Source of the DNA: Candidatus Onthousia excrementipullorum
GTDB taxonomy: Bacteria > Bacillota_I > Bacilli_A > RF39 > UBA660
Direction of reading: 5' to 3'
Length of the DNA: 64,000 bases
Assembly (NCBI GenBank): GCA_018712385.1
Contig: DVHC01000062.1
Location: forward strand, 72,208 to 136,207
This document shows positions 31,844-59,249 of this stretch, piece after piece (the stretch's first letter is position 1; the number at the start of each line of letters is the position of its first letter). The position numbers and the translations under genes were made by a program. The notes beneath the pieces were generated by a model, which was given only the letters and a program-made list of their open reading frames with translations, was not told where the DNA came from and ran no database searches.

Positions 31844-32740
31844 TTATTTATCTAAATGCATTATTTCTAGTATTCTTGTTAAGTCATTAGCATTTGTAAA
31901 ACTTATTTCTAGTTTATTATTTCTTATCTTTACTTTTGTACCTAGTTTTTCACATAAATCACTTTCTAAGTAAGAGTATTCATTATCTTTAGCTTTTGAT
32001 TTATGAGGTGTTATTTCTTTTTTACGATGATATTCTTCTTTAGAATTGGTTAACTCTTCTAGTCTTCTAACACTTAGATTTTCATTTATTGTCTTTTCTG
32101 CTAGACTTATAGCTTGCTCTTTATCTTCAAGCTTACTTAGGACTCTAGCATGTCCCATACTTAGTTCACCTTTTACTACTTCATCTTTTATTTCATTAGG
32201 CAAAGTTAAAAGTCCTAACATATTAGTAATATGACTTCTTGATTTACCTACTTTCTTAGCAAGTTCTTCTTGTGTTAGATTAAGTCTAGTCTTTAAGGCA
32301 TTATAGGCTTCTGCTTCTTCCATAGCACTTAAGTTTTCTCTTTGTAAGTTTTCAAGTAAAGCTATTTCCATCATTTCTTCATCAGTAAAGTCTTTAATGA
32401 TGGCTGGTATGGTAGTTAAGCCTGCTAGTCTTGAAGCTTTAACACGACGTTCTCCTGCGATTATTTCATAGCCTTTAATACTTTTTTTAGCAATTATAGG
32501 TTGAAATACTCCATGCTCTTTGATAGATGAAGCTAATTCATTAAGACTTTCTTCATCAAAGTTTTTACGAGGTTGATAAGGGTTACTTCTTAATTCATCT
32601 AGATTTAGATTTACTATCTGGTCTTTTGGAGTGTTATTTATTATCTTTTCTTCTACATCGGCAATATTTAATTGTTCACTATTAAATAATTCTTCAAGAC
32701 CTTTTCCTAAAGCACGCCTTTTATTTTCCATTTCTATCAA
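31844..32740 (-). CDS. spo0J: Chromosome-partitioning protein ParB/Spo0J
   Basis: LGKGLEELF N-terminal peptide, IIAGERRVKASR CTPase box, HTH KSRSHITNMLGLLTLP...LSMGHARVL (Spo0J-type) and C-terminal dimerisation region KLEISFTNANDLTRILE. The start is ambiguous between the TTG at 32740 and the ATG at 32731. Confidence 0.9.
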   Translation of the reverse strand: MIEMENKRRALGKGLEELFNSEQLNIADVEEKIINNTPKDQIVNLNLDELRSNPYQPRKNFDEESLNELASSIKEHGVFQPIIAKKSIKGYEIIAGERRVKASRLAGLTTIPAIIKDFTDEEMMEIALLENLQRENLSAMEEAEAYNALKTRLNLTQEELAKKVGKSRSHITNMLGLLTLPNEIKDEVVKGELSMGHARVLSKLEDKEQAISLAEKTINENLSVRRLEELTNSKEEYHRKKEITPHKSKAKDNEYSYLESDLCEKLGTKVKIRNNKLEISFTNANDLTRILEIMHLDK

Positions 32741-33509
32741 TCACTTCCTTTGCTAAGTTTAGATAAGCTTCTGAGCCTTTACTCTTAGGGTCATATACTA
32801 TTATAGGTTCTCCATGGGATGGAGCTTCTGTTAATCTAATTAGTCTTGGTATAATAGTATTATATACCTTTTCTTTGAAAAACTTTCTAATATCATCTAC
32901 TACTTCAAAACCTAAGTTAGTTCTTGAATCTAACATCGTTAGTAAGACTCCTTCTATATCTAGATTAGGATTTAATTGTTTTTGAGCAAGTCTTATTGTA
33001 TTTAGTAATTGCATTATTCCTTCTAGAGCAAAGAACTCACATTGAACTGGAATAATAACAGAGTCACTTGCTGTTAGGGCATTTGTTGTAATTAATCCTA
33101 ATGATGGAGGACAATCTATTATTATAAAATCAAAATTTTCATCTTTTAGCTCTTTTAGATGATATTTTAATTGGGCTCCTTTTGCAAAACCAGGTTCACT
33201 CTGACTTTTTTCAAGTAGTTCAATATCAAGACCTGCTAAATTTATTGTTGCAGGTAGTACATATAGTTTTTTATATTTAGTTTTAATCATGGCATCTTTG
33301 GTACTGCATTTATTTGTTAGAACATCATATACACTTACATCTATATCCCCCTTATTTATTCCTACTCCTGTTGTGGTATTACCTTGAGGGTCTAAGTCTA
33401 TTAATAATACTTTTTTACCAAGGAATGCTAATGAGGCAGAAAGGTTAATACTTGTTGTTGTCTTTCCTACTCCACCTTTTTGATTAACTAAAGAAATTAC
33501 CTTTGCCAT
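32721..33509 (-). CDS. soj: ParA/Soj partitioning ATPase
   Basis: Deviant Walker A NQKGGVGKTT; DLDPQGN; 262 aa. Confidence 0.95.
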   Translation of the reverse strand: MAKVISLVNQKGGVGKTTTSINLSASLAFLGKKVLLIDLDPQGNTTTGVGINKGDIDVSVYDVLTNKCSTKDAMIKTKYKKLYVLPATINLAGLDIELLEKSQSEPGFAKGAQLKYHLKELKDENFDFIIIDCPPSLGLITTNALTASDSVIIPVQCEFFALEGIMQLLNTIRLAQKQLNPNLDIEGVLLTMLDSRTNLGFEVVDDIRKFFKEKVYNTIIPRLIRLTEAPSHGEPIIVYDPKSKGSEAYLNLAKEVIDRNGK

Positions 33510-33605: not shown

Positions 33606-35030
33606 TTAGCTGTTATTATTTTCTTTAGATATTTTAATAGTTATCTGATAGTTATTAACAAGGTCCATTTCTTCACTATCTACTTTAAAGCCTGACTCTT
33701 CTATTTTCTTTAGAGTTTCTCTTACTAGATTTATAGATTCATTTAGAGTATATTTTGGTTTATTTTCTTTTTGTTGTTCTTCACTCGCTTTTACATTGTC
33801 GCTAAAGATTGGATTATGAGCGAATGGATTATTAAATGTATCTATACTAGGTATTGATGGTGTCTCTTTAACAGAAGTATTGTTATTGGTATTAACTCCT
33901 GCTAGTAAGTTATCCATAGATGTACTAGTAGAATCTTTTAAATCTTTAGTCTCTCCTCCTAAGTTAAAAGGATTATCATTGATGAAAGGAGCATTGGTTG
34001 GGGCTGGGGTATCAAACATAGAAGTTGATGGTTCTTGCTTTGAAGGTGCCTCTTTAGCTTCTTCTTCCATAGGTGAGAAAAATTTAAAATTACTTTCTTC
34101 TTCTTTCTTTTCTTCTTTAGGGGCAACCTTTAAGAATTCATTAACATCAGTTGTTGGTTTTTCTACGTTGATATCTTGGGCCTTATCTTTTATAGCATTG
34201 ATATCAATAGATTTATTAGCAGTACTTTCTAAGTTATCATTTATATTTGGTACATCGTAATCAATAAATTTTGGAGGAGTGGAATAATCAATTCCTACAC
34301 TTGTATTAAAATCATTATTAGGATTTGAATTAGAATTGATATTTAGAGAATTAGTTTGAGGCATAGTAGCACTAACAGGTGATGGATTTAATAAGGCATC
34401 TATATCACTTTTTGTTATTTCTTCTTTAGGATTTATTTTTTCCTCTAATTCTCTTACAGTCATTTTTTTATCTATAACTTCTTTTAATAATTGTTTTTGA
34501 GTCTCAGGGTCTTTGGCATTTAATAAGGCTCTAGCATGACGTTCTGAGATTTGGTCTTTTAAAAGAGCATCTTGGACTTCATCTGTTAAAGATAAAAGAC
34601 GTAGTTTATTGGCAACAGCACTTTGACTTTTACCCATAGTTTTAGCAAGTTCTTCTTGAGTCATTTGGTCAAGTTCAAGAATTTTTTGATATGTTTTTGC
34701 TTCTTCGATTGGGTTTAAGTTCTTGCGTTGTAAGTTTTCAAGAAGAGCGACTTTGCTACTTTCTTTATCATCCAAATTACGAACAATAGCTGGTATAGTT
34801 GTAAGTCCTGCCATAGCTGAGGCTTTATAACGACGTTCTCCTGCTATTATTTCATACTTATTACCAATGTTACGAACAATAATTGGTTGAATTACACCAT
34901 GTTCTTTGATAGATACTGCTAACTCTTTTAAAGCTTTTTCATCAAATACTTGTCTTGGTTGAAATCTATTTGGAATTATATCATCTAAATGTAAATATAC
35001 TACTTCGTTTTCTTTATTATCCATATACAT
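33606..35030 (-). CDS. noc: Noc-type ParB paralogue (nucleoid occlusion protein family) with a long inserted low-complexity linker
   Basis: It occupies the rsmG-noc-soj-spo0J position. Motifs: IIPNRFQPRQVF, IIAGERRYKAS and the HTH KSQSAVANKLRLLSL...ISERHARAL (Noc-type, compare B. subtilis GQSTIANKLRLLKL...ITERHARAL). The C-terminus INLVRETLKKIEESGFKVDSEEMDLVNNYQITIKI parallels the B. subtilis Noc C-terminus ([35 protein letters not shown]). Comparisons are from memory. Confidence 0.8.
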   Translation of the reverse strand: MYMDNKENEVVYLHLDDIIPNRFQPRQVFDEKALKELAVSIKEHGVIQPIIVRNIGNKYEIIAGERRYKASAMAGLTTIPAIVRNLDDKESSKVALLENLQRKNLNPIEEAKTYQKILELDQMTQEELAKTMGKSQSAVANKLRLLSLTDEVQDALLKDQISERHARALLNAKDPETQKQLLKEVIDKKMTVRELEEKINPKEEITKSDIDALLNPSPVSATMPQTNSLNINSNSNPNNDFNTSVGIDYSTPPKFIDYDVPNINDNLESTANKSIDINAIKDKAQDINVEKPTTDVNEFLKVAPKEEKKEEESNFKFFSPMEEEAKEAPSKQEPSTSMFDTPAPTNAPFINDNPFNLGGETKDLKDSTSTSMDNLLAGVNTNNNTSVKETPSIPSIDTFNNPFAHNPIFSDNVKASEEQQKENKPKYTLNESINLVRETLKKIEESGFKVDSEEMDLVNNYQITIKISKENNNS

Positions 35031-35095
35031 ACCCTCTTTATTCTATTCTTTTATTTTTCTACTAATCTCATTATATCATTAATTGTACTAGTTTG

Positions 35096-35743
35096 CTAGG
35101 CTTTATTTTTAATTTCTAAAATTGTTCTTACATCTTCCTTATTTGGTAAAGTAAATATCTCTTTATTATTAATATACCAGTTATGTTTTTTCAGAATATC
35201 TTTAGATAGTTCTAACTCTTCAGTAACATTTCCTTTCATGGCAAGAAAACTACCATTTTTATTTACTAAAGGCATTGTCCATAATAGTAGTTTAGGTAAG
35301 TTTGCTACAGCTCTTGCTGTTACAATATCAAACTTTTTTCCCTCTTTTATTAAGTCTTCAGCACGATTATGATAGGCTTTTATACCTGTTAGATGTAATT
35401 TATCTATTAAGTTATTAAGATAATTTACTCTTTTTAAAAGTGAATCTACTAAAGCTATTTCTAAGTTAGGATAAAATATTTTTAAGACTAGACCTGGAAA
35501 ACCGGCTCCGGTTCCAATATCACATAGAGTTTTAGCTTTTGATAGGTCATATACTTTGGCTAGAGTTAGACTATCATAGAAATGTTTTAAATAGACATCA
35601 CTTTCTGCTGTTATTCTTGTTAAGTTCATAGTTTTATTTGTTTCTATTAAAGTATTATAAATAATATCTAACTTTTCTAATTCTTCATCAGTTACCTTTA
35701 AACCTAGCTTTTCTACTTCTTTTATAAACTCTTCCTTAGTCAT
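35096..35743 (-). CDS. rsmG: 16S rRNA (guanine527-N7)-methyltransferase
   Basis: DIGTGAGFPGL SAM motif; 215 aa; directly downstream of mnmG. Confidence 0.9.
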   Translation of the reverse strand: MTKEEFIKEVEKLGLKVTDEELEKLDIIYNTLIETNKTMNLTRITAESDVYLKHFYDSLTLAKVYDLSKAKTLCDIGTGAGFPGLVLKIFYPNLEIALVDSLLKRVNYLNNLIDKLHLTGIKAYHNRAEDLIKEGKKFDIVTARAVANLPKLLLWTMPLVNKNGSFLAMKGNVTEELELSKDILKKHNWYINNKEIFTLPNKEDVRTILEIKNKA

Positions 35744-38202: not shown

Positions 38203-39558
38203 TTACTTTCCTACACAGAAGTTTGCAAATAACTCATCTAATAGCTCATCACTATAGCTTTCTCCTGTAATAGAACCTAGTATATCAAACACTTCTTTTA
38301 AATCTATTTCTATTATATCAACAGGTTCATCATTATCTAAACTAACTTTAGCTTGGCTTAAACTCTTTAGAGCTTGTTTAGCAAGGCTCAACTGTCTTTC
38401 ATTAGCAAGATAAGTGTAGTCATCTTCTTTTATCTCAGATAATTTAAACATACTCTTTATCTCTTCTTTTAGGGGTTCTATTCCATCTAGTGTATTAGTA
38501 TTAGTACTTACAATATGTTTAAAGTCTAACTTAGATTTATCTATTTTACTTGGTAAATCGTTTTTATTTAAAACTATGATTGGATTTTTGTCTTTAACTT
38601 TATCTAAGATAAACTTATCATTATCAGTTAATTCTTCACTAGAGTTTAATACCACTATAATAAGGTTAGCTTTATCTATTAAAGATAAACTCTTCTCTAC
38701 TCCTATTTTTTCGGCTAAGTTATCTGTGTCTCTTATTCCTGCTGTATCAATTAGGGATAATTCTATACCATCAAAGATAATACTTCCTTCAACAATATCT
38801 CTTGTTGTTCCTTCAATATCAGTAACAATTGCTTTATCCTCTTTTAAAAATCTATTTAAAATGCTACTCTTACCTACATTAGGCCTTCCTATTATTATAG
38901 TTTTTATACCATTTTTGATAATCTGTCTTTCCTCTGACTTTGTTACTAAGTTCTTTAAATCCTTTTCAAGACTAGTTATTACTTCTTTTAACTCTTTTCT
39001 AGTAACCTCTTCTATATCATAGTACTCAGGATAGTCGATATTAACCTCGATATTGGCTAGAACATGTTTTAGTTTATCTCTAAAACTATTAATATATTTT
39101 TTTAAAGAACCTTCTAAGGATGATAAAGCTAGTTTCCTACTATTATCAGTCTTACTTTCTATTAAATCCATTACAGCTTCAGCTTCGGTTAAATCTATTC
39201 TACCATTAAGAAAAGCTCTTTTCGTAAATTCTCCAGCTTCTGCCCTTCTTCCTCCGTTTTCTATTAATAAATCAAGAATTCTAAGTGTTGTAGCGATACC
39301 ACCATGACAATTTATTTCCACAATATCTTCTCTTGTAAATGTTTTAGGAGCCCTCATTACTGATACTAATACTTCATCTATATCTTCTTTACCATCATGA
39401 ATAAACCCATAATTTATAGTATGAGACTCTACTTTTGTTAAATCTTTTCCTCTAAAGATTTTATTTACTAAGGAAATAGCATTATCTCCACTTACTCTTA
39501 TAATAGAGATAGCCCCTACTCCTAGTTTCGTTGATATGGCAACTATGGTATCAGACAT
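38203..39558 (-). CDS. mnmE: tRNA modification GTPase MnmE (TrmE/ThdF)
   Basis: DTIVAISTKLGVGAISIIRVSG, G-domain GRPNVGKSS / DTAG / NKND and the C-terminal FCVGK. Confidence 0.95.
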   Translation of the reverse strand: MSDTIVAISTKLGVGAISIIRVSGDNAISLVNKIFRGKDLTKVESHTINYGFIHDGKEDIDEVLVSVMRAPKTFTREDIVEINCHGGIATTLRILDLLIENGGRRAEAGEFTKRAFLNGRIDLTEAEAVMDLIESKTDNSRKLALSSLEGSLKKYINSFRDKLKHVLANIEVNIDYPEYYDIEEVTRKELKEVITSLEKDLKNLVTKSEERQIIKNGIKTIIIGRPNVGKSSILNRFLKEDKAIVTDIEGTTRDIVEGSIIFDGIELSLIDTAGIRDTDNLAEKIGVEKSLSLIDKANLIIVVLNSSEELTDNDKFILDKVKDKNPIIVLNKNDLPSKIDKSKLDFKHIVSTNTNTLDGIEPLKEEIKSMFKLSEIKEDDYTYLANERQLSLAKQALKSLSQAKVSLDNDEPVDIIEIDLKEVFDILGSITGESYSDELLDELFANFCVGK

Positions 39559-40267
39559 TTTTCATTACTCCTATTCTTTTTACTTTATCTTTATCTTTAG
39601 ATATACCTAAAGCTTTATAAACTTCTGTTCCAAAGAATGCTTCTTGTTCTCTTTCTGTTAAACTATCTTTTTCATTTAAATATTCTAATTTTATTGATGG
39701 TAGTTCTTTTACATTCTTTATATCATAATTATGAGGATTTTCATATACCTTATAACTTAATATATCATTTACTACCTTATCATCTTCGTATACTTTATAA
39801 GCTTGCAAAGAGTTCCTTACAGCATTTATATAATTATTTAACTCTTCTATAGTAAAGCTTGCTGGTAATCCTTCTTGTTCCTTTAAATTAATTAAGTGTT
39901 TTAGTGCTGTTACAGGAGAGTATAAAACCTTGTCTTCTCTTTCTTTATTATATATTATACCATTTACGGAAATTAGATTTTCAAGATAATTTAATTTTTC
40001 TTGATAATATTTTATAGTTATGGGAGTTTCCTCATATTGTTTTACTACTACATAATTATCTTTCAACTCTTCTATTCTTTTTATTAATTCAATGGATTTT
40101 ATTATATTAGAAGTTTTATCTATTTCTTGTTTTAGGGCAATATATTCTTGTACTGCTTCTAAAGCTTCTAAACTTTTTATCCCATTCTTTATAACATCTA
40201 TTTCAGTAGTTAATTGTAACTTTAAAAATTCTAAATCATTAATTGTATCTGCAACTATTTCTTGCAT
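39551..40267 (-). CDS. Hypothetical, probably coiled-coil protein; its stop overlaps the mnmE start by 8 nt
   Basis: 238-aa ORF with a GGAAAGGAAGGTG RBS upstream of the ATG. Heptad-like Glu/Lys/Leu/Ile-rich N-half; no family recognised. Confidence 0.5.
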   Translation of the reverse strand: MQEIVADTINDLEFLKLQLTTEIDVIKNGIKSLEALEAVQEYIALKQEIDKTSNIIKSIELIKRIEELKDNYVVVKQYEETPITIKYYQEKLNYLENLISVNGIIYNKEREDKVLYSPVTALKHLINLKEQEGLPASFTIEELNNYINAVRNSLQAYKVYEDDKVVNDILSYKVYENPHNYDIKNVKELPSIKLEYLNEKDSLTEREQEAFFGTEVYKALGISKDKDKVKRIGVMKNV

Positions 40268-45616: not shown

Positions 45617-45754
45617 ATTTTGAAAATTTGAGGAAAAAAGTAAGGAAATTTTACTTTTTTTTTACTTTTGCGACAAAAAAATACCTTTTTCGACAATATA
45701 ATATAGTAGACTGATAGCAAAGCAAGGAATTGCTTTTTGAAGGGGGAAATTTTT

Positions 45755-46213
45755 GTGAAAGATTATGAAATTAATGATGAGACACTTGCGATTATGCCTG
45801 GGGGAGATTTATGGGATTCAGTTGTAGTTGAAGATGACTGTAATTATGAGGTTAAGATGAAACCTTTAGAAATAGTTGATTATAGTTGTAGGTACTTTGG
45901 AAGTTCTTATGAAGGAAGAAAAACGGGAGCAGGGGAAATACTAAACAGTTCTTATAAAGTTCCTGTTATGGTTGAAGATACTAAGAATTTAATATTTTTT
46001 CCTACTACTAGTCCAATAGATGATGACTGTAGTTGGATATCTTTAAAAAATATTAAGAGTTATAGTAAACTTACTAGTACTAAAACACAGGTAGAATTTA
46101 AAAATGGTAAGGTACTTACTGTTGATATATCTTATAATTCCTTTAATAATCAGGTAATGAGAGCGAGTAGATTAGAATCTATAATAAGAAGCAGAAAAGA
46201 AAAAGCAAAATAA
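45755..46213 (+). CDS. comK: ComK-family competence transcription factor
   Basis: MKPLEIVDYSCRYFGSSYEGRKTGA and ISYNSFNNQVMRASRL closely parallel B. subtilis ComK (MKPLQIVDRSCRFFGSSYAGRKAGT; ISYNSFENQVYRTAWL, from memory). Start moved to the GTG at 45755 after AAGGGGGA. Confidence 0.85.
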   Translation: MKDYEINDETLAIMPGGDLWDSVVVEDDCNYEVKMKPLEIVDYSCRYFGSSYEGRKTGAGEILNSSYKVPVMVEDTKNLIFFPTTSPIDDDCSWISLKNIKSYSKLTSTKTQVEFKNGKVLTVDISYNSFNNQVMRASRLESIIRSRKEKAK

Positions 46214-51821: not shown

Positions 51822-51836
51822 CTTCTTCTTTTTTTT
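51796..51836 (+). terminator. Candidate intrinsic terminator of gyrA
   Basis: AAGAAG(A)AAGT, a 14-nt loop, then ACTTCTTCTT followed by TTTTTT. Confidence 0.45.
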
Positions 51837-51852
51837 AAGCTTTATATATTGA

Positions 51853-51868
51853 TGTTTCACGTGGAACA
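51853..51868. promoter_or_regulatory. parS site, unit 1
   Basis: TGTTTCACGTGGAACA is the reverse complement of TGTTCCACGTGAAACA, a perfect fit to the B. subtilis parS consensus TGTTNCACGTGAAACA. Confidence 0.85.
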
Positions 51869-51909
51869 TATAGAGAGGTAGATAAAACTATATGGATAAG
51901 TAGTAAAAT

Positions 51910-51925
51910 TATTTCCCGGGAAATA
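51910..51925. promoter_or_regulatory. Noc-binding-site (NBS) palindrome, unit 1
   Basis: TATTTCCCGGGAAATA contains the B. subtilis NBS core ATTTCCCGGGAAAT. It is embedded in the perfect 24-bp palindrome AAATTATTTCCCGGGAAATAATTT (51906-51929). Confidence 0.8.
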
Positions 51926-51979
51926 ATTTAGGTAGAAGTAAGTATTAAAGTTATACTTTATTTAAAGCTTATATACTAA

Positions 51980-51995
51980 TGTTTCACGTAAAACA
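51980..51995. promoter_or_regulatory. parS-like site, unit 2 (one core mismatch)
   Basis: TGTTTCACGTAAAACA; the central CACGTG is changed to CACGTA. Confidence 0.5.
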
Positions 51996-52036
51996 TATGA
52001 AGAAGTAGATAAAGCTATATAGAGAAGTAGTAAAAT

Positions 52037-52052
52037 TATTTCCCGGGAAATA
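52037..52052. promoter_or_regulatory. NBS palindrome, unit 2
   Basis: TATTTCCCGGGAAATA within the same 24-bp palindrome. Confidence 0.8.
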
Positions 52053-52106
52053 ATTTAGATAGAAGTAAGTATTAAATTTATACTTTCTTTAAACTTTATA
52101 TACTAA

Positions 52107-52122
52107 TGTTTCACGTGGAACA
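52107..52122. promoter_or_regulatory. parS site, unit 3
   Basis: TGTTTCACGTGGAACA, a perfect consensus fit. Confidence 0.85.
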
Positions 52123-52163
52123 TATAAAGAAGTAGATGAAACTATATAGAGAAGCAGTAAAAT

Positions 52164-52179
52164 TATTTCCCGGGAAATA
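52164..52179. promoter_or_regulatory. NBS palindrome, unit 3
   Basis: TATTTCCCGGGAAATA within the same 24-bp palindrome. Confidence 0.8.
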
Positions 52180-52233
52180 ATTTAGGTAGAAGTAAGTATT
52201 AAAGTTATACTTTCTTTAAACTTTATATACTAA

Positions 52234-52249
52234 TGTTTCACGTGGAACA
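52234..52249. promoter_or_regulatory. parS site, unit 4
   Basis: TGTTTCACGTGGAACA, a perfect consensus fit. Confidence 0.85.
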
Positions 52250-52290
52250 TATAAAGAAGCTAATAAAACTATATAGAAAAGTAGTAAAAT

Positions 52291-52306
52291 TATTTCCCGG
52301 GAAATA
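52291..52306. promoter_or_regulatory. NBS palindrome, unit 4
   Basis: TATTTCCCGGGAAATA within the same 24-bp palindrome. Confidence 0.8.
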
Positions 52307-52360
52307 ATTTATAGAGAAATAAGTATTAAATTTATACTTTATTTAAAACTTATATACTAA

Positions 52361-52376
52361 TGTTTCACGTGAAACA
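52361..52376. promoter_or_regulatory. parS site, unit 5 (perfect 16-bp palindrome)
   Basis: TGTTTCACGTGAAACA. Confidence 0.85.
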
Positions 52377-52417
52377 TATAAAAAAGTGGATAAAGCTTTA
52401 TAGAGAAGTATTAAAAT

Positions 52418-52433
52418 TATTTCCCGGGAAATA
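52418..52433. promoter_or_regulatory. NBS palindrome, unit 5
   Basis: TATTTCCCGGGAAATA within the same 24-bp palindrome. Confidence 0.8.
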
Positions 52434-52487
52434 ATTTAGATAGAAATAAGTATTGAATTTATGGTTTCTTTAAACTATATATACCAA

Positions 52488-52504
52488 TGTTTTCATGCGG
52501 AACA
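52488..52504. promoter_or_regulatory. Degenerate parS remnant, unit 6
   Basis: TGTTTTCATGCGGAACA has a 1-nt insertion and a disrupted core. Confidence 0.3.
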
Positions 52505-52545
52505 TATAAAGAAGTAGACAAAATTATATAGAAAAGTAGTAAAAT

Positions 52546-52561
52546 TATTTCCCGGGAAATA
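52546..52561. promoter_or_regulatory. NBS palindrome, unit 6
   Basis: TATTTCCCGGGAAATA within the same 24-bp palindrome. Confidence 0.8.
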
Positions 52562-52590
52562 ATTTGATATCTATTTGTATTTTTTTCTGC

Positions 52591-59233: not shown

Positions 59234-59249
59234 TATTTCCCGGGAAATA
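59234..59249. promoter_or_regulatory. Solitary NBS palindrome at the rsmI/pth junction
   Basis: TATTTCCCGGGAAATA within the identical 24-bp palindrome AAATTATTTCCCGGGAAATAATTT (59230-59253). It overlaps the rsmI stop codon. Confidence 0.75.

Follow-up and report, generated by a model that had tools for sequence, protein, structure and literature searches.

How does a Noc protein work when it lacks the N-terminal helix that targets Noc to the membrane and instead holds a long acidic linker ahead of its dimerisation domain? This question is raised by a noc gene in a 64,000-nucleotide stretch of Candidatus Onthousia excrementipullorum DNA (assembly GCA_018712385.1, contig DVHC01000062.1, positions 72,208 to 136,207 of the forward strand), which we call the window. 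We found that the gene encodes the sole Noc of its genome, that its architecture is shared by a whole family of gut Bacilli, and that every Noc binding site (NBS) found in the assembly lies near the replication origin. The explanation we favour, with somewhat better than even confidence, is that of an origin-restricted Noc clamp whose linker would dock partners.

Identity and N-terminus of the window Noc

The gene and the parts of its product are as follows.

33606..35030, minus strand: noc orthologue (open reading frame (ORF) list; NCBIfam TIGR04285; closest solved structures)
35043..35045, minus strand: in-frame stop TAG (read on the DNA; same situation in 60 of 60 distinct orthologues)
34728..35003, minus strand: ParB/Noc N-terminal cytidine triphosphate (CTP)-binding domain, residues 10-101, with PNRFQPR, GERRYKAS and ENLQR (Pfam PF02195, E 3.6e-35)
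34431..34724, minus strand: helix-turn-helix (HTH) DNA-binding domain, residues 103-200 (Pfam PF17762, E 1.1e-34)
33756..34430, minus strand: acidic disordered linker, residues 201-425, net charge -18 (composition; predicted local distance difference test (pLDDT) of the AlphaFold2 model)
33621..33755, minus strand: Noc-type C-terminal dimerisation domain, residues 426-470 (hhalign; modelled as helix-strand-strand, pLDDT 82-88)

The ORF list gives noc as an uninterrupted 474 codons, the length reported in a first-pass annotation of this DNA, and reading the DNA confirmed a second point of that annotation: the frame meets a TAG five codons before its first ATG, and no longer N-terminus is possible. 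The gene before it, rsmG, has its end at 35096. The frame opens ATG TAT ATG GAT, and an AGAGGG ribosome-binding site precedes it, leaving a gap of 1 nt to the first ATG and of 7 nt to the second, at 35024. This spacing, together with public gene calls of 472 aa for identical proteins, indicates that the true start is probably the second ATG (Met3), giving a 472-aa product beginning MDNKENEVV. Whether translation starts at Met1 or Met3, the conclusion that the helix is missing is unchanged. The IIPNRFQPR box starts at residue 18, one residue earlier than first reported.

In model Noc, the membrane-targeting amphipathic helix alpha1 comprises residues 1-10, and alpha2 and then an 8-residue loop come after it (PMC8429893). 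We found that residues 4-6 of the window Noc align to residue 24 of the B. subtilis and G. thermoleovorans Noc structures, while its residue 9 falls on residue 3 of the engineered NocNdelta26. On this alignment the window Noc lacks both alpha1, the membrane-targeting sequence, and alpha2. The engineered NocNdelta26 (PDB 7NG0; Jalal et al. 2021, PMC8429893) has almost the same start point as the natural window Noc. However, NocNdelta26 is a laboratory truncation made for crystallography, whereas the window Noc is helix-less as a conserved wild type and has a new linker.

We extracted 60 distinct orthologues from independent assemblies and found the N-terminal helix absent in all of them. Each starts 13-20 residues before DDIIPNRFQPR and has a stop just upstream. 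The upstream stops in all 60 rule out a longer N-terminus, another start or a frameshift. The first-pass annotation had allowed that a frameshift or sequencing error might hide a canonical N-terminus, but the short N-terminus repeats across these assemblies. Its claim that the N-terminal helix is lacking is thus upheld by the upstream stop, by the alignment from Noc residue 24 and by the orthologues. In four other families of the class, Noc begins with a hydrophobic N-terminus (MGLFDFLG, MASLFNIL, MNIFSG and (V)FNIFL), and therefore the ancestral state of Noc in the class appears to be helix-bearing. A fifth Noc (G037) has no hydrophobic N-terminus and begins MKINNISIDK.

The remainder of the protein is that of a Noc. 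Its top NCBIfam family was TIGR04285 (Noc), which it matched with 293.9 bits in two stretches; the neighbouring ParB scored 234.3 bits. The score lies below the curated cut-off of 315 bits, a shortfall probably due to the insertion splitting the match. The best solved relatives in both sequence and fold, above all ParBs, were the Noc proteins of G. thermoleovorans (55-57% identity) and B. subtilis (49%). The top structure matches were the Noc entries 7NFU, 7NG0 and 7OL9, with 49-57% identity over the N domain and HTH, and a Foldseek search with the folded parts of the AlphaFold2 model returned Noc/ParB only. The CTP-binding motifs, aligned residue by residue to 7NFU and 7OL9, are invariant within the genus.

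Four residues switch ParB from parS to NBS, and in Noc these are Q, K, K and R, corresponding to Q158, K164, K169 and R186 of B. subtilis Noc (Jalal et al., PMC7383237). When the window Noc was mapped onto B. subtilis Noc by alignment, the residues at these positions were Q136, K142, S147 and R164. Since a single lysine at either middle position suffices (PMC7383237), this set counts, as judged from the sequence, as NBS-type. In contrast, the neighbouring ParB has the parS-type arginine at the first position (GKSRS, versus GKSQS in Noc).

The C-terminal domain of the family matched canonical Noc C-terminal domains over 48 columns (hhalign probability 96%, E 3e-9) and gave no match to ParB C-terminal domains (hhalign probability 0.5%). 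The Noc-type C-terminus of the first-pass annotation therefore stands, for the last ~48 residues. Pairwise BLASTP between this domain and canonical Noc found no match, and profile-profile comparison was needed to detect the relationship. The family PF23552 matched the neighbouring ParB, not the window Noc. The two neighbours share their fold and their CTP motifs, and both presumably load at the 127-bp repeat array described below. However, the window Noc lacks the ParA-stimulating N-terminal peptide LG[KR]GL, which ParB retains as ALGKGLEELF, has glutamine for the parS-reading arginine, and has a C-terminal domain unrelated to that of ParB at the profile level. It does not qualify as a chromosomal ParB/Spo0J.

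The genes downstream of noc are:

32721-33509, minus strand: parA (soj), directly downstream of noc
31844-32740, minus strand: parB (spo0J), two genes downstream of noc

The genes run mnmE, a CYTH-like gene, mnmG, rsmG, noc, parA, parB, and noc occupies the classical noc slot of Bacillota, rsmG(gidB)-noc-soj-spo0J. The genome holds no ParB-family genes besides those of Noc and ParB. For this reason the protein, first described as a paralogue, is to be regarded as the sole, syntenic Noc orthologue of its genome. An extra paralogue was rejected for the relatives as well, each genome holding only Noc and ParB.

Distribution of the long Noc and the motifs of its linker

The long noc was present in 25 of 25 genomes of the genus, with 62-100% identity over the full length. 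Every one of 151 further genomes of the order (86 genera) gave a ParB-family match, and nearly all Noc-type matches in this sample were open frames of 323-764 aa. Genera g54 and g101 gave a single ParB-family match each and have lost Noc. Public records list the genomes of the family as uncultured Bacilli or Tenericutes, Clostridium sp. CAG:417, CAG:451 and Candidatus Onthousia; they are gut Bacilli with small genomes (0.6-1.6 Mb). The helix-less, long-linker Noc is a family-wide trait, seen in more than 80 sampled genera, and not the single diverged protein that the window alone had suggested. Residues 1-200 of family members averaged 85% identity to the window Noc, their linkers 35% and their C-terminal domains 58%. 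Almost every column of the N domain is invariant within the genus, and the C-terminal domain is kept downstream of every linker.

A few proteins depart from this pattern. The Noc of the one sister-family member sampled (L045, G025:C29) has a short 262-aa frame whose CTP motifs are lost, PNRFQPR being changed to SNRYKTR and ENLQR to TNLHD, and whose HTH recognition helix differs as well; this Noc appears to be decaying. No intermediate between the canonical and the long-linker form was seen in this sampling. Two public proteins, P0090 (357 aa, on a 1.09 Mb contig) and P0093 (297 aa, on a 312 kb contig), are 88-92% identical to the window Noc but stop within the linker, so that no C-terminal domain is left. 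These could be frameshift errors in low-complexity sequence or true truncations. In P0132 (330 aa) an unrelated 150-aa N-terminal part is fused to the Noc cassette and C-terminal domain, and this protein is probably an assembly or gene-calling chimera.

The linker is rich in asparagine (13.8%), serine (10.2%), proline (9.8%), glutamate (8.9%), lysine (8.9%), threonine (8.0%) and aspartate (8.0%) and has no arginine, tryptophan or cysteine. Family linkers in the sample were 151-352 aa long and net negative throughout (-4 to -48). The tether between the HTH and the C-terminal domain is thus 225 aa, acidic and motif-bearing in the window Noc, whereas in B. subtilis and other model Noc it is ~20 residues and basic. 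We predicted the structure of the full protein by AlphaFold2 with a 30-sequence alignment, the disorder prediction that the first reading of this DNA had proposed. The N domain, HTH and C-terminal domain were modelled with pLDDT ~80-88, while residues 201-405 were disordered (pLDDT mostly below 50) with short helices only, at 207-214, 277-283, 296-299 and 372-377.

Within the linker we found five motifs, M1-M5, and one more local block.

34254..34295, minus strand: M1, GIDYSTPPKFIDYD, residues 246-259 (genus-invariant residues; 33 of 37 family members)
34167..34208, minus strand: M2, IDINAIKDKAQDIN, residues 275-288 (29 of 37; AlphaFold2 helix 277-283)
34125..34151, minus strand: M3, TDVNEFLKV, residues 294-302 (36 of 37; short predicted helix 296-299)
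34062..34091, minus strand: M4, NFKFFSPMEE, residues 314-323, holding the FKFF of the first-pass annotation (near-invariant in the genus; ~25 of 37 by the strict pattern)
34002..34022, minus strand: M5, SMFDTPA, residues 337-343 (24 of 37)
33795..33842, minus strand: DTFNNPFAHNPIFSDN, residues 397-412, the NNPFAHNPIF block (genus alignments)

Motifs were counted with regular expressions on 37 non-redundant family members of less than 75% mutual identity, across which M1-M5 recur in constant order. The family form of M1 is [KQ][FY]I[ND]YGEI followed by an acidic run (PPKFIDYD in the window), that of M2 is [IV]D[IL]xx[IL]KxxxxDI (IDINAIKDKAQDI in the window), and that of M3 is DLDSLL[NK][IV] (DVNEFLKV in the window). 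For M4 it is [FY][KR]F[FIV]x[PS]..E, often F[KR]FITPAEEIVK, with FKFFSPMEEE in the window and looser forms in other members; for M5 it is [DE]YF[KS][TA]PD[LI], with SMFDTP in the window. The NNPFAHNPIF block is conserved only in the genus and its nearest relatives, not family-wide.

Single residues of the linker are invariant or nearly so in the genus: I247, D248, Y249, S250, P252, P253, F255, I256 and D257; D286 and I287; and F315, K316, F317 and F318. The pair D286-I287 of M2 is invariant in the 30-sequence alignment and near-invariant family-wide. FKFF is under selection, being near-invariant in the genus and the local form of the family-wide M4. All the short motifs first quoted for this region were found, NFKFFSPM at 314-321, SMFDTP at 337-342, DNPFNL at 352-357, NNPFAH at 400-405 and HNPIFS at 405-410. 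The description of the region as a low-complexity insertion holds for its Asn/Pro/Ser/Thr/Glu-rich composition, but the insertion is not uniform, given its five conserved motifs and invariant islands.

When 1.84 billion representative proteins were searched with a profile of the M1-M5 cassette, 41 matched, and those inspected were family Noc or Noc fragments, bar one spurious tandem-repeat protein (P0124). The linker had no significant match in Pfam (DUF6730, E 1.3) or among PDB profiles (flotillin, E ~0.1, which we took as chance), and its motifs occur in other proteins of the genome only as chance short matches. From the profile search and the null Pfam and PDB searches the cassette is best described as a lineage-specific invention confined to Noc.

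Two resemblances to known peptides were considered. We rejected the idea that M1 (PPKFIDY) imitates the C-terminal peptide of FtsZ (DYDFPPFLRD): the likeness is limited to the genus, and the family form [KQ][FY]INYGEI is unlike it. By eye M3 (DLDSLL) resembles the ParB N-terminal GL(E/D)xL(F/L) peptide, but the motif is short and the basic residue is absent, and the likeness is speculation.

NBS at the origin and the proposed working of Noc as a clamp

The binding sites of the assembly lie in two places in the window.

51830..52569: 127-bp tandem array (5.8 copies) in which six perfect NBS, TTATTTCCCGGGAAATAA, alternate with five parS
59235..59248: the seventh and last NBS of the genome

The 14-bp NBS consensus ATTTCCCGGGAAAT occurs exactly 7 times in the 1.50-Mb assembly (27.5% G+C), and no further NBS was found in it within two mismatches. 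CCCGGG occurs 8 times in the genome; 7 of these are the NBS, each inside the 18-bp palindrome. The array stands just downstream of gyrA, ~8 kb from dnaA, with a tadA-like deaminase gene on its other side, and all seven NBS are 9-16 kb from dnaA. The NBS of this 90.7%-complete assembly are thus not scattered over the chromosome but all lie within 16 kb of dnaA. We presume that the array is a loading site for the window Noc. The link that the first-pass annotation drew between this Noc and a parS/NBS array is real, and it extends to all seven genomic NBS near oriC.

Across the family, 56 of 61 genomes (61 genera) had NBS. Most of these had 1-7, often grouped together on the contig that carries noc. 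One genome, G208, has 23 NBS in tandem arrays with a ~79-bp period (C1:89140-90102, C53 and C68), a much larger version of the window array. Some genera (G159:C10:27044 and others, not the window) have an NBS-like site a few hundred bases upstream of noc, which could serve autoregulation.

In comparison with the Noc proteins of B. subtilis and G. thermoleovorans (7NFU, 7NG0, 7OL9 and 6Y93), the window Noc shares its gene position, N domain, HTH and C-terminal domain, and the same NBS occurs in its genome. It differs in the absence of alpha1 and alpha2, in its tether, and in its sites, which are few, confined to the origin and interleaved with parS, whereas those of model Noc are scattered around the chromosome. 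Because NBS are found only beside the replication origin, the window Noc probably works differently from the textbook Noc.

We propose that, next to the ParB-parS complex, the window Noc would load at the origin-proximal NBS as a sliding clamp that depends on CTP. Loaded clamps would display a brush of acidic linkers whose motifs may dock one or more partners, the candidates being division or segregation proteins, or the membrane. FKFF, in M4, would be one docking motif among the five. Such a clamp would organise, anchor or guard the origin region and would not exert chromosome-wide nucleoid occlusion through an N-terminal lipid-binding helix.

Several points weigh against an origin-restricted clamp that docks partners. 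The third specificity position is serine, not lysine. Outgroup genomes with canonical Noc hold few sites too (0-5 NBS at up to one mismatch, on different contigs or at distant positions), so the contrast with them is in clustering and perfection more than in number. The assembly is a metagenome-assembled genome in 75 contigs and 90.7% complete, and a few NBS could be missed. The short motifs could serve intramolecular regulation in place of partner docking, and an internal membrane contact by M4 is possible.

The last of these points, taken further, gives the best of the other explanations. Here the [FY][KR]F[FIV] motif (FKFF) would insert in the membrane and tether Noc-bound DNA from within the linker, at the origin only. 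FKFF is near-invariant in the genus, recurs in genera whose linkers have otherwise diverged, and brings together one basic residue and two or three that are aromatic or aliphatic. The FtsA of the organism ends in a similar Lys-Phe-Phe tail (NKFFGHFFDN), and its SepF N-terminus (MALDKLKKLIG) likewise precedes an acidic run. The N-termini of B. subtilis Noc (SFSRFFGL) and SepF (KLKNFFSMEDEE) also resemble FKFF.

However, AlphaFold2 predicts no helix at FKFF (pLDDT below 50 at 301-366). The segment ESNFKFFSPME has a hydrophobic moment of 0.33 and a net charge of -1, whereas comparator membrane-targeting sequences have moments of 0.41-0.56 and usually a positive charge. A hydrophobic-moment scan, the amphipathic-helix check once suggested for this linker, did not single out FKFF: the highest moments were those of M2 and M3, and no segment combined a high moment with positive charge. 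Both the flanks of FKFF and the linker as a whole are highly acidic, which speaks against contact with anionic membranes, and proline or serine directly follows the motif. The commonest family form of M4, F[KR]FITPAEEIVK, has the T-P-A-E-E conservation typical of protein contacts, and about a third of genera lack a strict M4 match. In model Noc the release of the helix is controlled by CTP, with N-domain packing gating the helix (PMC8429893); such gating could not work for a helix in the linker, which lies past the HTH. The first-pass suggestion that FKFF is a moved membrane element therefore keeps its conserved motif and its FtsA-like tail, but lacks a predicted helix and has a modest moment and acidic flanks. 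We regard a relocated anchor as possible but, on balance, doubtful.

The linker could also act on Noc itself. It may be an entropic spacer or bristle, enlarge the clamp lumen, control condensation, or mimic DNA and gate DNA binding, with its motifs contacting Noc's own domains. The linker is always net negative and highly variable in length, while the tethers of model Noc and ParB are short and basic. The cassette occurs in no other protein, and the N domain and HTH keep their mean identity of 85% across the family, which would fit co-evolution with an internal ligand. Yet a spacer would not need five separate motifs that keep their order and hold invariant residues, and the single-chain AlphaFold2 model gave no compact linker fold and no sign of docking onto the folded domains, in a check that did not include inter-residue errors. 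We consider a passive or intramolecular linker quite unlikely.

An artefact or decaying gene (a mis-called start, frameshift, assembly error, or pseudogene drifting to low complexity) is effectively refuted by the conservation data: a few close public relatives are shorter (357, 329, 310 and 297 aa), P0090 and P0093 among them breaking off in the linker, and the degenerate sister-family Noc comes from a genome (G025) with no NBS, but the long frame is uninterrupted in every one of the 25 genus genomes and in nearly all of the 151 of the order, the N domain and HTH are almost invariant, the C-terminal domain is kept past every linker, and perfect NBS are maintained.

Cellular context and meaning

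An origin-restricted clamp that docks partners would act in cells that lack MinD. MinD was found above the TIGR01968 cut-off in 0 of 41 family genomes, and Soj is the only KGGVGKT Walker A protein in the genome of the organism. The family is without MinD and probably without a Min system. The genome encodes FtsZ, with the C-terminal peptide DYDFPPFLRDKNF, as well as the FtsA and SepF described above and two DivIVA-family proteins. Spo0A scored above its curated cut-off, SpoIIGA- and SigE-like genes follow ftsZ, and a motif search alone found FtsK/SpoIIIE-, SMC- and MurG-like ORFs.

Two other genes of the window were noted. A 238-aa coiled-coil ORF between jag and mnmE (39551-40267, minus strand) has no Pfam match. 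It was rejected as a co-distributed Noc partner, being present in 2 of the 151 genomes of the order, and is fast-evolving or genus-restricted. A ComK-family gene (45737-46213, plus strand; PF06338, E 1e-48) lies between dnaN and recF.

We found no description of a helix-less, long-linker Noc in our literature search. Known systems of other ancestry resemble the arrangement proposed here. RacA-ram in B. subtilis, RocS in S. pneumoniae and RicO-ricS in S. aureus have sites only near the origin and combine a sequence-specific binder with a separate membrane or polar contact element. RocS uses a terminal amphipathic helix for this contact. RicO has been reported to use one as well (bioRxiv 10.64898/2026.03.06.710092). 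However, the RacA, RocS and RicO families are unrelated to ParB, whereas in the window the binder is a ParB/Noc CTP clamp and its putative contact motifs lie in a disordered linker. ParB-MipZ in Caulobacter and SlmA in E. coli are division regulators positioned by specific chromosomal sites, which for MipZ are at the origin. The logic of positioning is shared, but the window system has no MipZ-like ATPase or TetR-type SlmA, and any action on FtsZ is hypothetical.

An Ndelta26-like start, an acidic motif-bearing linker, NBS interleaved with parS and the lack of MinD together suggest a two-protein centromere. A more specific proposal, which we think unlikely as it stands, is that in this Min-less family Noc has been rebuilt as an origin-tethered regulator of division or segregation that loads only at the parS/NBS array and whose linker engages FtsZ, FtsA, SepF, DivIVA or Soj directly. 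If so, septa would be kept off origin-proximal DNA and the poles, or origins would be anchored in sporulation, and a CTP-switch clamp would follow a MipZ- or RacA-like logic without lipid binding.

The conservation of a helix-less Noc means that either there is a Noc activity independent of the helix, or the contact element can be rebuilt elsewhere in the protein. The family also offers a natural series of linker lengths, from ~150 to more than 350 aa, for probing how tether and lumen affect the sliding and bridging of ParB-family clamps. The finding bears on ParB-family CTP switches and on division-site selection in a family that is abundant in the gut and uncultured.

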